Of a DNA stretch of 64,000 bases, positions 22,353 to 25,915 are shown piece after piece. The notes beneath the pieces are model-generated. The model ran no database searches. It was not told the DNA's origin and was given only the letters and a program-made list of their open reading frames with translations. The stretch lies in contig JAKAJL010000009.1 in assembly GCA_021813805.1 (NCBI GenBank), positions 27,594 to 91,593 of the forward strand, in the 5' to 3' direction. The stretch comes from Pseudomonadota bacterium (GTDB taxonomy: Bacteria; Pseudomonadota; Alphaproteobacteria; Rhizobiales; Beijerinckiaceae). The position numbers and the translations under genes are program-made. The first letter of the stretch is position 1, and each line of letters opens with the position of its first letter.

Positions 22353-23963
22353 TCAAGGGCGGGCGACGTCCTCTTGCCTCCATTCCAGAATGGTCTTGCT
22401 TTCCGGCGCCGGTTCAAATGCGATATCGCGCCGGCCAAAGGTTATTTCTCCTGACGCCCCATCGAGGGCGATCCAATCGCCCTGACGAATGGCTCGGCCC
22501 CCGATTGTCGCGCCGCGCCCGTCGGCGTCGATCGTCAGGGCGGCGCAGCCCACCAGACATACTTTCCCCATTTGCCGGGCGACGACCGCCGCATGGGAGG
22601 TGCGGCCGCCGATCGCGGTCAGGACGCCGTCCGCCGCGGCGAAACCGGCGATGTCCTCGGTTGAGGTGTCGCGCCGGATGAGGATCGCCTTTTCGCCGCG
22701 ACGAGCCAGATCCTCGGCCTGCGCGCCGGCAAAACAGGCGCGCCCGCAGGCGACGCCCGGCGCGGCGACGACAGCGTGCGCGACCACCGGGGCGGTCTCG
22801 ACAAAAGTGGTTTCGCCGACCTTGGCGACGTCGATTCCCGCGACCCGCCGCAGCGCCTCGGCGCGATCGATCAGTCCCTCGGCCACCAGATCGACCGCGA
22901 TCTTGAGCGCAGCGCGCGGGGTGCGTTTGGCGGAACGGGTTTGCAGCAGGAAGAGTTTGCCGTTCTCGATGGTGAACTCGATATCCTGCATGTCGCGCCG
23001 CGCCTTTTCCAGCGTCCCGACGCTTTCCTCCAATTGCCGCGCCGCTTGCGGCAGGCGATCGCGCAATTGCGCCGCGTCAAGCGGCGTGCGCCGTCCCGAA
23101 ACGACATCCTCGCCCTGCGCGTCGAACAGGAAATCGGCATAGAAGGTTTTGGCGCCGTTGGCGGGATCGCGCGAAAAGGCCACGCCCGAGCCGGAAGCGC
23201 CGCCGGCGTTGCCGAAGGCCATGATCTGGACCGTGACGGCGGTGCCGAGCAGATGGTCCAAGCCGTTCATCCGGCGGTAGGTTTCGGCGCGCGAACCGCG
23301 CCAGGACAGGTAGACCGCGCGGGCGGCACCGAAAAGCTGCGCCATCGGGTCCGGCGGCGGGCCGGCGTCCTCGGCGATAACGAGAAACGCACTGGCCAGC
23401 CGCTCCAAAGCTTCGGGATCGAGCTCGCCCTCATGGGCGACGCCTTCAGCCTCGATCATGCGCGCCAGCGCCTGGTCGAAGGGCGCCGTCTCCATCCCGC
23501 CGACGACTTCAGCATAGGCCTGGATGAACCGCCGCCAGGAGTCGAACGCGAGGCGTGGATTTCCCGTCGCACGGATCAGACCGTGGACGCTGACCGCGTT
23601 CATGCCGACATCGAGCACTGTCTCCAGCATGCCCGGCATGGAGTGTTCCGCGCCAGAGCGCACCGAGACGAGGAGCGGCGCGCGGGCGTCGCCGAGCTTG
23701 CGCCGTGTCGCGGCCTCAAGGCGCGCGACGCCTTTGGCCAAGCCGTCGCGAAGGACATTTTGCGCTTTCTCGTCGCCGGAGAGGATCGGGCCGCAGAGCG
23801 CCGTCGGGAGAACAAAAGCAGGCGGGACAGGCAGACCGAGCGCGGTCATTCCCGCCAGTTCCGAGGCTTTCGAGCCATATAGCGCGGCAGGCAATTCGGC
23901 CTGTCCGCTCCCGCCGGCGTCGTCCAAGCCAATCCAGCCGACCTGCAGCTCGTGCGCGTTCAT
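22353..23963 (-). CDS. pyruvate-phosphate-dikinase-like protein: ATP-grasp nucleotide-binding domain + phospho-histidine swivel domain, lacking the PEP/pyruvate-binding domain
   Basis: The N-terminal region ([11 protein letters not shown]..., [45 protein letters not shown]) and the swivel domain ([46 protein letters not shown]...[16 protein letters not shown]) are PPDK-like. The protein is 536 aa from ATG 23963. That ATG overlaps the upstream stop (ATGA). The track ORF extension up to 24356 is Arg-rich and overlaps the upstream gene. Confidence 0.85.
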   Translation of the reverse strand: [536 protein letters not shown]

Positions 23964-25915
23964 GCGGACAACTCCTGGAAAAGCCGGGCGCGCAGCGACA
24001 TGGCCGCATGGGCGAGGCGATCGGTCGCCCCCTCCAATGAACGGGCGATTTCCAGCCCGAGGACGATAACGCGCGCTTCGGCGCCCGTAAGCGCCGGCCC
24101 CAGCAGCGCGGCCATGGCGGCGCGCTGGGCCGCGTCGGCGGCGCGTTCGGAGTCGATGACCGCGTCGATGCATTTGAGGGTGAACGCGGCGTCCTCCCGC
24201 TTGCCTTCGGGCGCCAGAAGCGCGCCATCGACCGCCCGCGTCATTTGCGCGGCCGATTCGGTCGCGATCGACGCCAGCAGCGCGAGCGGAGGGCCGATCC
24301 GGTTCGCCTCGTCGCCCTCGGCCAGGCTGACGAGAAAGGCCGCCTCGTCGAAACAATCGGTCGCCGCCTCGATCTGGTCGACCAGCGCCAACACGTCCTC
24401 GGCCTCGCGCAATCGCGACGAAAGTTTGCGCGCCTCGACGGTCAGCCGGTCCGCCTTGGCCTCGATCGCCTTGGCCCGCGCGGCCAGAACGCGCCGCTCG
24501 TCAACATTCGCCAGCGAATCGGGCAGGAAGGCCATTTCGATCATGCCCGCCAGCATTCGCGTCAGGCCAAGATGACGCAGCGCGACGGCAAGGGTTTCGC
24601 GCTCGGCGGTATCGAGCCTTTGCGACAGATCCGCCTGGATTTCGTCACGGATCAGCCGCGTCGAGCGGCCATCCTTCAGGCCCTCGCAGGCGACATGGAG
24701 AACATGGCGCAGAAAGCCCTGGCATTCGTCCTCGCCAAGCGCCTGGCCGAGCGGCGCGCCATAAGCGATCCGGCCGGACGCCGCATTGCGGACGGCCTCA
24801 TAGACAAGCTCCGCGCCGCCGAGTTCGAGAAAGGCGCGATGGCCTTCGTCGCGCCGGGCCGCGTCGGTGAGAATTTGGATCGCGCCCTTTTTGCCAGTAA
24901 AAAGCTGGAGCGCTTTGCGCGCCTTGTTCCAGTCGATCAGGAAGACGATGCGCGAGCCGAGCAATTCGAGGAAGCGATCGAGTTCAGGGGCGTCCGCGGC
25001 GCGAAAAACGCCGGTCAGCAGATAGAAGACCTCGCCTTCCGCAAGATTGCGCTGCCGCTTTTCGCCAAGAGGGCTCCATTCGACGCCCGATTCCTCGAAC
25101 AGAGACATGAAGAATTTGGCGCGCGGACGATGGACGTCGGTATAGGTCGTCGTCGCGGTCAGGCCTTCGACGCGGACGACCAGCACATGGGCGTCCGTCG
25201 TGCCGATGTCATTCTGGATCGAGAGGCGCGCGCCGATTTTTCCAGCCGTGGTCGCCAGTCCCGGGTGGCCGAAGGCCAGGTTTTTCGTGCGGTTCAAACC
25301 GCGCATGAAAGCCTTGACCCGGGCGCGGGCGGATTCGTCGAGGCCCGCGGCGCCGGCGCCGTCCACGTCCTCCACGGCGGTCTCGGCGGCCAGCCGGTTG
25401 ATGGCGCGATGAAGGTCCATCACCACGAGATGCAGGCTGTCGCCGGCCTCGCGGCGGACGGAGGCCAACGCCAGCGCCTCGGCGTGCGAAACCCGGTCAT
25501 CGGCGAAGGACGGCAATGCGGCGACAATGGCGTCCACGCGCCGTTTCAGCGCGGCGACGTCCTCGCCGCCGGCGACTTCGAGAGGCTCCACCATGGCGGC
25601 GAGGTCGTCCGCCATGCCGCCGGCCAGGGCCGCCGCCCCGGGCGCGATGAAATGACCGGCGTCGAGCGGCCGCGCCCCGGAGAAAATCGCATCGAAAGCA
25701 GCGTCGTCGAGCCCCGCCGCGCGTCTTTCGCTCTCCAGCGCGGGAGCCGCGCGACCGGGCTCGGACGCTTGGGCGGAGGCTTCCTGCAGAAGGGTCATGC
25801 GAATTTTCAGACGGTCGTTGGCCGTCAAAGCCGCCGCGATCAGACCCGGCAGGAGGACCGCCTTCTCGCCCAGGGATTCGACGATTGCGACCTTGCCGAC
25901 CATTCGTTTCGTCAA
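23960..25915 (-). CDS. 651-aa protein of unknown function; the C-terminal 200 aa or so resemble DUF47/PhoU-like helical repeats
   Basis: The ORF is long, has a normal amino-acid composition and a high third-position G+C. I recognise no catalytic motif. C-terminal segments such as KADRLTVEARKLSSRLREAEDVLALVDQIEAATDCFDEAAF and IDAVIDSERAADAAQRA...LEIARSLEGATDRLAHAA resemble the two-repeat DUF47/PhoU pattern. That domain assignment is an inference. Confidence 0.7.
   Translation of the reverse strand: MTKRMVGKVAIVESLGEKAVLLPGLIAAALTANDRLKIRMTLLQEASAQASEPGRAAPALESERRAAGLDDAAFDAIFSGARPLDAGHFIAPGAAALAGGMADDLAAMVEPLEVAGGEDVAALKRRVDAIVAALPSFADDRVSHAEALALASVRREAGDSLHLVVMDLHRAINRLAAETAVEDVDGAGAAGLDESARARVKAFMRGLNRTKNLAFGHPGLATTAGKIGARLSIQNDIGTTDAHVLVVRVEGLTATTTYTDVHRPRAKFFMSLFEESGVEWSPLGEKRQRNLAEGEVFYLLTGVFRAADAPELDRFLELLGSRIVFLIDWNKARKALQLFTGKKGAIQILTDAARRDEGHRAFLELGGAELVYEAVRNAASGRIAYGAPLGQALGEDECQGFLRHVLHVACEGLKDGRSTRLIRDEIQADLSQRLDTAERETLAVALRHLGLTRMLAGMIEMAFLPDSLANVDERRVLAARAKAIEAKADRLTVEARKLSSRLREAEDVLALVDQIEAATDCFDEAAFLVSLAEGDEANRIGPPLALLASIATESAAQMTRAVDGALLAPEGKREDAAFTLKCIDAVIDSERAADAAQRAAMAALLGPALTGAEARVIVLGLEIARSLEGATDRLAHAAMSLRARLFQELSA

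Follow-up and report, generated by a model that had tools for sequence, protein, structure and literature searches.

Two adjacent genes on the minus strand of the window (the whole stretch of DNA that was analysed, 64,000 nucleotides), here called A and B, make up the locus (Table 1). An earlier note on this DNA had placed both reading frames here, and an ORF check found both to be real. The note gave A a length of 651 aa, which holds for a start at the TTG codon, but the homologues of A are 645–660 aa long and begin with MVGK or MV.K, so that the true start is probably ATG 25903, giving 647 aa.

Table 1. Features of the A–B locus and its flanks, in positions of the window
Feature	Positions	Strand	Remarks
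PPK2 (polyphosphate kinase 2) relic	22144..22275	+	last 44 codons; convergent with B, ends ~80 nt from the B stop
Gene B, 536 aa	22353..23963	-	ATP-grasp nucleotide-binding domain, swivel phospho-His domain and linker helix
B swivel (phosphoryl-carrier) domain, residues ~391-510	22434..22793	-	Pfam PF00391 and 2fm4
A/B junction	23960..23975	-	GGAG 23975-23972, 8-nt spacer, B ATG 23963-23961 over A TGA 23962-23960
Gene A, 651 aa from TTG 25915	23960..25915	-	public label only 'DUF47 domain-containing' or 'hypothetical'
A C-terminal PhoU/DUF47-like domain, residues 419-651	23963..24661	-	two three-helix repeats
A N-terminal region, residues 1-418	24662..25915	-	helical 1-180, beta-rich 181-308, helical 309-418
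Sigma-70-like promoter match ATGACA-16-AACAAT	26028..26055	-	in the CYTH-A gap, ~125 nt 5' of the A ATG
CYTH (triphosphate tunnel metalloenzyme) gene, 172 aa	26304..26822	-	Pfam CYTH 5e-08; upstream of A

Gene B reads from ATG 23963 to the stop codon at 22353–22355. Its sequence identifies it as the ATP-grasp and swivel-His half of pyruvate, phosphate dikinase (PPDK) with the catalytic residues intact, as had been proposed: Pfam finds PPDK_N (E = 1.1e-35) and the PEP-utilizers mobile domain (PF00391, residues 424–505, E = 1.7e-20), and the catalytic histidine is His457, within GGRTSH (codon 22595–22593). The protein carries [17 protein letters not shown] and [15 protein letters not shown]. In a phmmer search against the PDB, residues 27–515 of B align with residues 17–511 of Clostridium symbiosum PPDK (E = 1e-126), and the PPDK residues Lys22, Arg92, the Gly101 loop, Asp321, Glu323, Gln335, Arg337 and Thr453-Ser-His455 are all kept; the phosphoryl carrier domain 2fm4 matches residues 391–510 (E = 5e-28). 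The full-length model TIGR01828 is covered over positions 16–524 of 865 with a score of 532 bits, short of its cut-off of 843, and NF004531 scores 444.8, below its cut-off of 456. The public annotation of B is ‘pyruvate, phosphate dikinase’.

B ends soon after the swivel domain, 26 residues past GEITFG. Neither B nor A nor the neighbourhood encodes the PEP/pyruvate TIM barrel, which takes up ~350 aa in PPDK, in line with the earlier note; Pfam gives no PEP-utilizers_C match in B, and a six-frame search of the complete 64-kb window and of 80 related loci found neither of the two PEP-utilizers_C signature motifs. B stops at this domain boundary in each of the complete loci, as do all 120 best homologues (521–596 aa), which excludes a frameshift or an assembly truncation.

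The sequence at the junction reads ATGA at 23960–23963, with the start of B over the stop of A, as the note had seen, and a GGAG lies 8 nt upstream of the B start; judged from the sequence, this is a translational-coupling arrangement. An estimated 4-nt overlap is also present in 12 related loci, and the first aligned residue of B lies within 150 nt of the A stop in 76 of 79 loci. Upstream of A, the sigma-70-like match is a weak promoter candidate; one such site was found in the CYTH–A gap versus 0.6 expected from shuffled sequences, a result that carries no significance when taken alone.

A has relatives in 1561 homologous clusters and, at 50% identity, 1094 representatives, and it has no Pfam or NCBIfam match at default thresholds and none in PADLOC or among PDB sequences. 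The statement that its first part has no nameable motif holds for the ~420-residue N-terminal region, for which no PDB or BFVD fold match rose above noise. The AlphaFold2 model covering this region has a pLDDT of 87.9; the fold has no known relative from which a chemistry could be carried over. Across 327 sequences, including actinobacterial fusions, A has about 30 invariant polar residues, six of them histidines, and those of the N-terminal region include His162, Asp167, His169, His217 (in GHPGL), Gln234-Asn235-Asp236, Thr240, His243, Asp260, His262, Arg265, Asp328-Trp329-Asn330, Arg333, Lys334 and His359. Such a sequence pattern points to a site for binding or catalysis.

The last ~230 residues of A match 3l39, 2iiu and 2olt in Foldseek at a probability of 1.0 (TM 0.77–0.80). 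For 3l39 the values are E = 2e-3 and TMt 0.80, and PhoU (1t72/4q25) is also matched. The Pfam family PhoU_div (PF01865) reaches E = 0.019 in A and 5e-6 in the fused homologue P0166. An hhalign comparison of the two halves of the domain gives a weak match (E = 5.6e-4), and Glu485/Asp489, Asp520, Glu590/Asp594 and Arg598 are conserved. The tail is PhoU/DUF47-like with two repeats, as had been supposed.

A neighbourhood census covered 80 reference-genome loci, from Alphaproteobacteria and a few Gammaproteobacteria, Acidobacteriota and candidate phyla, and in 79 of them B is the next gene downstream of A. The linkage is kept over 38–88% identity, and the divergence of A co-varies with that of B (r = 0.97). 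Clustered at 90% identity, natural A–B fusion proteins of ~1190–1240 aa make up no fewer than 120 clusters, all from Solirubrobacteraceae among the entries with a named taxon; A is N-terminal and B C-terminal, and the model of one fusion (P0301) has a disordered linker of ~26 aa between the halves. Conservation of the neighbourhood is limited to A and B, with no constant third gene, and the genes for the fusions stand alone. These sequence comparisons support A and B as a functional unit, and the adjacency and the fusions make it probable that the two proteins form a phosphate-transfer machine. Of the two-protein phosphotransferase of the earlier note, the functional unit is supported; an acceptor site on A is putative. 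In the AlphaFold2 model of a natural fusion (pTM 0.66) the swivel domain is docked on the nucleotide domain and not on A, in a pose with an r.m.s.d. of 4.2 Å to 1kbl versus 10.7 Å to maize 1vbg.

The neighbours are unrelated in 88% of the loci, and a link to polyphosphate rests on the other ~12%. The CYTH gene lies ~400 nt from A, a gap that leaves co-transcription with A–B not established. CYTH orthologues stand upstream of the pair in three of the 80 loci (L001, L003 and L004) besides the window, so that the linkage to CYTH raised in the earlier note is not general. CYTH–CHAD or CHAD flanks the pair in L005, L010, L037, L046, L059 and L069; taken together, CYTH, CHAD or CYTH–CHAD directly adjoins the pair in nine of the 80 loci and in the window, whether upstream or downstream and across several lineages, and neither was found at a non-adjacent position among the 80 loci. 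CYTH is no fixed component of the module but falls within a recurrent CYTH/CHAD/PPK2 association. The PPK2 relic is 63.6% identical to residues 332–375 of the intact PPK2 of L004 (tblastn E = 1.6e-11) and has in-frame stops upstream; a convergent PPK2, intact or split, lies at the same place in L004 and L003. CHAD is a polyphosphate-binding module and CYTH/TTM proteins are short-chain polyphosphatases (PMC6537752), and their recurrence with PPK2 beside the pair hints at oligo- or polyphosphate chemistry.

Our tentative preference, at somewhat less than an even chance, is for an obligate two-part unit for phosphotransfer that descends from PPDK, with B as the His~P donor and A as the acceptor or regulatory module. 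From its catalytic residues and the precedent of VadK (described below), B would bind ATP through the ATP-grasp domain and autophosphorylate His457 with the β-phosphate, the γ-phosphate passing to Pi (giving PPi) or to water if PPDK chemistry applies. As B has no third domain, we propose that the swivel domain delivers the phosphoryl group to a site on A, which in structural terms would stand in for the missing barrel. Docking or acceptance would probably take place at the β-domain of A, rich in invariant His, Asp and Arg (GHPGL, QNDIGxTDAH, TDVH-R-P-R and DWNxARK), and the PhoU/DUF47-like domain may hold the acceptor or gate the reaction; in known proteins this fold is tied to phosphate and metal binding. 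No conserved pathway gene flanks the pair, and CYTH, CHAD and PPK2 are its sole recurrent neighbours, a weak indication that the final acceptor is a ubiquitous anionic phosphate compound (Pi, PPi, triphosphate or polyphosphate) and not a pathway-specific organic substrate. The predicted pose of the swivel domain counts against its docking on A, and the protein targets proposed for VadK would, by analogy, count against a small-molecule acceptor. Moreover, proteins of the PhoU family are known chiefly for regulating kinases and transporters and not for catalysis. The data fit A equally well as supplier of the acceptor site, as PhoU-like regulator or as phospho-acceptor protein.

A may instead be a regulatory or sensor subunit, its PhoU/DUF47-like domain sensing phosphate or metal-phosphate status and switching a VadK-like B on or off, with B phosphorylating further proteins of the cell or enzymes whose genes lie at other loci. 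Among the targets that PhoU modulates are the histidine kinase PhoR and the PstB ATPase, and the C-terminal domain of A has the PhoU fold. Pi is a substrate of the partial reaction of the PPDK nucleotide domain, the A–B loci have no conserved third gene, and VadK is a stand-alone kinase that is reported to regulate enzymes through protein interaction (PMC13400623). We nevertheless think this rather unlikely, as A is far bigger than a PhoU module and has most of its invariant residues in the ~420-residue non-PhoU part, the family-wide 1:1 fusion and strict co-inheritance are commoner for subunits of one enzyme than for a sensor, and no candidate target is linked to A–B.

Less probable again is that A is itself phosphorylated, in a relay like that from PTS enzyme I to HPr, the phosphoryl group moving from His457 of B to a conserved histidine of A, for example His262, and altering the state of the PhoU-like output domain. 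His262 lies in D-V-H-R-P-R-A at a helix N-cap, where His262-x-x-Arg265 opens a predicted helix (263–271) right after a β-strand, an arrangement that we take to resemble His15/Arg17 of HPr; the six invariant histidines of A and the family that the swivel domain of B shares with the enzyme I His domain (TIGR01417, 1.9e-5) also favour a relay. Against this, Foldseek finds no similarity of A to HPr or any other phosphocarrier, the histidines clustered with Asp could equally form a metal site, and A has no known output function.

That the pair is a split PPDK or PEP synthase still interconverting pyruvate and PEP, with A a highly diverged PEP/pyruvate domain, is very improbable. The adjacency, the fusions and the public label of B are compatible with it, but A has no PF02896 match and no PEP-utilizers_C signature motif, is predicted to be helical with an antiparallel β-domain and not a (β/α)8 barrel, has no Foldseek match to PPDK or the enzyme I C-domain, and precedes B in the fusions, the reverse of the PPDK domain order; this reading is effectively refuted, and profile and Foldseek searches likewise identify no other characterised domain that A could be. 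The chance that B is a decaying pseudogene or a truncated ppdK fallen beside an unrelated gene is negligible: its truncation is all that speaks for this, and it is refuted by the shared stop position, the intact catalytic residues, the linkage kept over 38–88% identity and the lack of barrel remnants 3' of the B stop.

Compared with canonical PPDK (EC 2.7.9.1; TIGR01828; 1kbl/1dik), B shares the ATP-site residues and the T-S-H motif, and the swivel mechanism is presumably retained; the A–B pair differs in having no barrel. With PhoU/DUF47 proteins (PF01895, PF01865; 3l39, 2iiu, 2olt and 1t72) the tail of A shares the six-helix two-repeat fold and the repeated acidic E/D-x3-D helix motifs. Known members are stand-alone proteins of ~210 aa paired with Pst or Pit phosphate transporters, whereas this domain is the tail of a 647-residue protein paired with, or fused to, a kinase.

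Two-component small-molecule dikinases (HpeHI and phenylphosphate synthase) and rifampin phosphotransferase belong to the PEP-synthase/PPDK superfamily, and their ATP-grasp, swivel-His and substrate modules can sit on separate polypeptides and cooperate through the swivelling His domain (PMC12167813). HpeHI is split between the ATP-grasp domain and the swivel plus substrate domain, whereas A–B is split between the ATP-grasp plus swivel domains and a putative acceptor protein; A shows no similarity to a rifampin-binding-type domain in Foldseek, and those other systems lie in catabolic operons whereas A–B stands alone. The PTS offers a model for transfer from B to A, as in enzyme I a mobile His domain of the superfamily of B hands the phosphoryl group to a separate partner; there the donor is PEP, through a TIM barrel, whereas for B it is predicted to be ATP, through the ATP-grasp domain, and A is unrelated to HPr.

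The description of the system as new stands for A and for the A–B pairing, of which we found no account in the literature, but not for a truncated PPDK as an autonomous His kinase: NCBIfam already has a model for short PPDK-like proteins (NF004531), and a precedent is now published in VadK (Mycobacterium tuberculosis Rv1127c; EMBO Rep 2026, PMC13400623). VadK is a truncated PPDK and non-canonical histidine (di)kinase whose swivel His undergoes autophosphorylation that depends on ATP and Mg2+; it co-purifies with its operonic partner Rv1126c and is proposed to act on the proteins PrpC and PrpD and not on a small molecule (PMC13400623). VadK and B alike combine the PPDK ATP-grasp domain and swivel His without a PEP/pyruvate domain. 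The VadK gene presumably adjoins prpR/prpDC, and VadK regulates the methylcitrate cycle; the neighbour census found no prp genes beside A–B. The partner of VadK is a downstream protein of 201 aa and that of B an upstream protein of 647 aa. B is 36–37% identical to VadK versus 44% to C. symbiosum PPDK and is not its orthologue: it has TSH where VadK has ASH, keeps a ~60-residue helical insert of the nucleotide domain that is missing from VadK and falls below the NF004531 cut-off. On these sequence grounds B is a lineage separate from VadK, in which the swivel-His autophosphorylation shown for VadK is expected from the conserved residues.

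Gene A, the 651-aa partner ORF, and gene B, the 536-aa truncated PPDK ORF, overlap by the TGA of A and the ATG of B (ATGA, 23960-23963), with a GGAG 8 nt upstream of the B start. Judging from the homologues, the true start of A is most likely ATG 25903, which would give a protein of 647 aa. In a profile-guided search, with each GTDB species represented by a single genome, at least 554 loci with A were confirmed; the best 80 of these, with 38-88% identity to the A of the window, were studied in detail, and their taxa include Rhodoblastus, Bradyrhizobium, Xanthobacter, Methylocapsa, Reyranella, Tistlia, Zavarzinia, Acidocella, Dongiaceae and a few Gammaproteobacteria. 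A homologue of B lies directly after A on the same strand in 79 of the 80 loci, the exception having ∼290 nt of contig left. The alignment to B starts less than 150 nt from the A stop in 76 of the 79, and the divergence of A co-varies with that of B (r = 0.97, 67 loci). An exhaustive HMMER search returned natural A-B fusions, proteins of ∼1200 aa with the domain order [A N-region]-[PhoU_div]-[PPDK_N]-[mobile His domain]. These fall into at least 120 clusters at 90% identity, and those named to taxon are from Solirubrobacteraceae. The strict synteny and the Rosetta-stone fusions settle the A-B linkage, whose conservation in other genomes the earlier note had set as a test, and exclude an assembly truncation, a frameshift or a simple split ppdK.

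In B, Pfam finds the nucleotide-binding domain PPDK_N (1.1e-35) and the PEP-utilising mobile domain PF00391 (1.7e-20), and residues 27-515 align to residues 17-511 of the Clostridium symbiosum PPDK (E 1e-126, PDB sequence comparison). K22, R92, the G101 loop, D321, E323, Q335, R337 and T453-S-H455 (PPDK numbering) are conserved; the carrier histidine of B is His457, in GGRTSH (codon 22595-22593). The PEP/pyruvate TIM barrel, PEP-utilizers_C (PF02896), has no Pfam match in B or A, and B ends at the linker. Against the ppdK equivalog TIGR01828 of NCBIfam, B scores 532 bits (cut-off 843.45) and covers positions 16-524 of 865 only. A scan of all six frames, over the 64-kb window and the 80 related loci, gave no match to the two signature motifs of PEP-utilizers_C. 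The Pfam matches, the NCBIfam span and the motif scan bear out the proposal that B lacks the barrel, and the PPDK alignment and the GGRTSH histidine the proposal that it retains the ATP-grasp and swivel domains and the catalytic residue.

The 120 closest homologues of B are all 521-596 aa long and carry PF01326 and PF00391 only. At every related locus a complete B stops shortly beyond the end of its alignment to the B of the window, and no complete B among the 80 loci reads on into a third domain of ∼350 aa. This conserved stop position excludes a truncation by misassembly or frameshift. A split ppdK is ruled out by the lack of a TIM barrel or PF02896 in A, by the negative motif scan and by the domain order of the fusions, which is wrong for it. 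The reaction of a pyruvate, phosphate dikinase is not possible for B, and this label on B proteins is functionally wrong. In NCBI, UniRef and JGI, homologues of ∼530 aa without the PEP/pyruvate domain (P0400, P0451, P0454, P0487 and others) go under the names 'pyruvate, phosphate dikinase' or 'PEP/pyruvate-binding domain-containing protein', a systematic functional misannotation in public databases. Through hundreds of B proteins labelled as pyruvate, phosphate dikinase, a false PEP/pyruvate step enters the reconstructed metabolism of many Alphaproteobacteria, among them Bradyrhizobium, Xanthobacter, Methylocapsa and Rhodoblastus.

At normal thresholds, gene A matches nothing in Pfam, NCBIfam, PADLOC or the PDB sequences, and its structure was modelled with AlphaFold2 from 65 homologues (pLDDT 87.9). 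Residues ∼419-650 of the model form six long helices, and Foldseek matches this C-terminal part to PDB entry 3l39 (E 2e-3, probability 1.0, TM 0.80) and also to 2iiu, 2olt and the PhoU entries 1t72 and 4q25. The PhoU_div family (PF01865) scores 14.8 bits in the A of the window (E 0.019, GA 24.4) and 26.4 bits in the fused homologue P0166 (E 5e-6), and a precomputed PF01865 match is present in many fusions. The two three-helix repeats match each other weakly (hhalign E 5.6e-4). The two-repeat DUF47/PhoU tail that the earlier note had suggested is confirmed by the model, the Foldseek matches and this internal repeat. The helical parts of the N-terminal region were considered as further PhoU-like repeats and gave no hhalign signal.

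In the model, residues 1-418 are helical, then form a beta-rich domain (181-308) and are then helical again. These N-terminal ∼420 residues have no fold relative above noise in PDB sequence and profile searches or in Foldseek searches of the PDB and BFVD; the noise-level matches were YbjN/AmyR (probability 0.72, TM 0.4) and influenza PA (TM 0.1). Over 327 family members, actinobacterial ones included, conservation reaches at least 95% at ∼30 polar positions, mostly within 1-418, including H162, D167, H169, H217 (GHPGL), Q234-N235-D236, T240, H243, D260, H262, R265, D328-W329-N330, R333, K334 and H359. The PhoU-like part contributes E485, D489, R496, D520, E590, D594 and R598. This pattern looks like a binding or catalytic site, not a mere scaffold. 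A is widespread, with more than 1500 clusters and at least 554 species-level genomes, and combines ∼420 residues without a fold relative with a dense conserved His/Asp/Arg site. Within residues 257-269 of A (TYTDVHRPRAKFF, window 25147-25109), the invariant D260, H262 and R265 stand where a beta-strand ends and helix 263-271 has its N-cap.

Clustering of all of the flanking ORFs of the 80 loci showed only A and B to be conserved, with no conserved third gene; the Pfam families of the immediate neighbours were heterogeneous, and the fusion genes stand alone in their loci. CYTH and/or CHAD genes directly flank A-B, on either side, in the window and in nine of the 80 loci; A is 41-88% identical to that of the window in these loci, and the same flanks hold no CYTH or CHAD at non-adjacent positions. 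The association is real but concerns a minority (∼12% of loci), and is a lead to the chemistry, not a part of the system. CHAD modules bind polyphosphate specifically, and CYTH/TTM enzymes are short-chain polyphosphatases (PMC6537752). A convergent PPK2 gene follows B at two loci, intact in L004 and split by a stop in L003. A pseudogene or an error in long-read assembly would account for the split gene; this and the window's relic suggest that the clade is losing PPK2. The three ORFs tested in the ∼870 nt (21275-22143) between the relic and the response-regulator gene had no Pfam match.

Features of the A-B locus and its surroundings (window coordinates unless a locus is named; L numbers are related A-B loci)
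Feature	Position or loci	Strand	Remarks
ORF A	23960-25915	minus	TTG start, 651 aa
ORF B	ATG 23963 to stop 22353	minus	536 aa
CYTH alone beside A-B	window, L001, L003, L004		
CYTH-CHAD beside A-B	L010, L037, L059, L069		
CHAD alone beside A-B	L005, L046		
PPK2 relic, last 44 codons	22144-22275	plus	63.6% identity to intact L004 PPK2; stops precede; just downstream of B stop
PPK2 split by in-frame stop	L003:9635-10618	minus	two ORFs, PPK2 profile 2-97 and 108-228
Candidates for hybrid kinase upstream of A, ∼740-960 aa	L041, L045, L048, L056, L057, L060, L062, L066, L072, L076 (about 5.9 kb)	same as A	95-150 nt gap
Hybrid kinase of the window	17611-20526	plus	
Type I secretion pair	14141-17448	plus	ABC transporter 664 aa, HlyD-family adaptor 438 aa; upstream of hybrid kinase
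PfkB-family sugar kinase and 127-aa ORF	26876-28396 (kinase 27494-28396)	minus	upstream of CYTH; 127-aa ORF without Pfam match

Of 71 genes scanned directly upstream of A, eight have HisKA, HATPase_c and Response_reg domains and are hybrid histidine kinases (the checked example is from a Xanthobacteraceae MAG); they may be co-transcribed with A-B. The hybrid kinase of the window is not an orthologue of these, as only the kinase core matches (32%). Phosphoketolase (XFP, three loci) with acetate kinase (two loci) and P-type cation ATPases (three loci) are also found immediately upstream of A (L012, L018, L022, L025 and others), and a convergent gene of the PRK/uridine-kinase family follows B at six loci. 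The type I secretion pair, the PfkB kinase and the 127-aa ORF of the window have no conserved linkage to A-B. A, B and CYTH have no PADLOC match, which dismisses an anti-phage defence system, and Rfam has no match to a riboswitch or other RNA element in 20000-29000.

The most likely reading of A-B is an obligate two-part phosphotransfer unit. B would autophosphorylate His457 from ATP, as suggested by its intact site and by the experiment on VadK, the truncated PPDK of Mycobacterium tuberculosis. Its swivel domain could then serve a site on A, which would take the place of the lost third domain; the candidate for docking or as acceptor site is the invariant His/Asp/Arg beta-domain of A, and the PhoU-like domain may hold or sense phosphate species. 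The lack of pathway neighbours and the recurrence of CYTH, CHAD and PPK2 hint at a phosphate-type anion of ubiquitous occurrence as the probable acceptor. If this were inorganic oligophosphate or polyphosphate, A-B would be a new enzyme in polyphosphate and energy metabolism. The earlier note had proposed a two-protein dikinase or phosphotransferase to which A may supply the acceptor-binding module in trans: the functional coupling of A and B is strongly supported, by synteny, co-divergence and fusions, while acting as the acceptor module is a plausible, candidate role for A.

Other roles for A were weighed. In an AlphaFold2 model of a natural fusion (pLDDT 83.9, pTM 0.66, disordered linker 642-667) the swivel of the B part is docked on the nucleotide domain, and the B part superposes on the C. 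symbiosum conformer at 4.2 Å versus 10.7 Å for the maize one (1vbg); this model does not discriminate between a regulatory A and a phosphorylated A. With the targets of the kinase elsewhere, A could be its PhoU-like regulator; the tail is in keeping with this, the site-like conservation within 1-418 less so, and we consider it somewhat unlikely. An unrecognized inorganic-phosphate dikinase is an improbable reading: B would couple ATP + Pi ↔ AMP + PPi to phospho-His, and the novel His/Asp/Arg-rich domain of A, aided by the PhoU-like one, would exchange the phosphoryl group with PPi, triphosphate or polyphosphate. Such an enzyme would be a new route to triphosphate or polyphosphate, or would regenerate ATP from AMP, PPi and polyphosphate; it would account for the recurrent CYTH, CHAD and PPK2 neighbours, and would make the N-terminal region of A a new phosphotransfer fold. 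Improbable as well is that A is itself phosphorylated, for example on H262 in D-V-H-R-P-R-A at the helix N-cap, as HPr is by EI; the local His-x-x-Arg arrangement (H262/R265) recalls the phospho-His site of HPr, to which A has no global fold similarity.

A-B shares with canonical PPDK (TIGR01828, EC 2.7.9.1) the ATP-grasp nucleotide domain and the swivel domain with its T-S-H histidine, but B lacks the C-terminal TIM barrel and falls below the equivalog cut-off. Known PhoU_div/DUF47 proteins are stand-alone, ∼210 aa long and encoded with a Pit/Pst phosphate transporter. A has their six-helix two-repeat fold, but as the tail of a 647-aa protein, and the 25 neighbour families listed highest for the 80 loci include no PHO4 or Pst family. 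A literature search found no report that connects a PPDK-like kinase with a DUF47/PhoU-like protein. Two-component dikinases of the HpeHI type are split between the ATP-grasp domain and a swivel plus substrate domain, and lie in catabolic operons (PMC12167813); in contrast, B holds both the ATP-grasp and swivel domains, and A has no RPH-like substrate domain by Foldseek.

To our knowledge VadK, a virulence-essential kinase, is the only truncated PPDK to have been studied. Long annotated as ppdK, this protein (Rv1127c) was characterized in 2026 as a truncated PPDK without the PEP domain; mass spectrometry showed that, given ATP and Mg2+, it phosphorylates its own His422 in the swivel domain, and it is reported to interact with PrpC and PrpD and to regulate the methylcitrate cycle (PMC13400623). 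Its solubility rises on co-expression with the operonic partner Rv1126c, from which it is separated only by 2 M NaCl (PMC13400623). Rv1126c, at 201 aa, is the size of one PhoU/DUF47 domain. With the VadK sequence recovered from the alignment in PMC13400623, B is 36-37% identical to VadK, compared with 44% to the N-terminal half of C. symbiosum PPDK and 45-47% to the B part of the fusions. Both B and VadK consist of the ATP-grasp and swivel His domains only, but a helical insert of ∼60 aa in the nucleotide domain, retained by B, has been lost from VadK, and B has T-S-H where VadK has A-S-H. Against NF004531 (NCBIfam, 534 positions, 'pyruvate, phosphate dikinase'), which we take from PRK05878 to be the model of VadK-type short PPDKs, B scores 444.8 bits over profile positions 17-450, below the cut-off of 456. 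Methylcitrate-cycle families are not among the top 25 listed immediate-neighbour families of the 80 loci.

From the identities, the insert, the T-S-H motif and the NF004531 score, B belongs to a truncated-PPDK lineage separate from VadK, which is a precedent and not an orthologue. With VadK characterized, a TIM-barrel-less PPDK acting as an autonomous His kinase is already a known concept. The B family is a second and much more widespread lineage of truncated-PPDK kinases, defined by its obligate partner, an uncharacterized protein of 647 aa whose N-terminal region is novel and whose tail is PhoU-like. Since this partner is obligate, and even fused to the kinase in one lineage, the question of what truncated-PPDK kinases phosphorylate can be put to a far larger and genetically cleaner system in the A-B family than in VadK.
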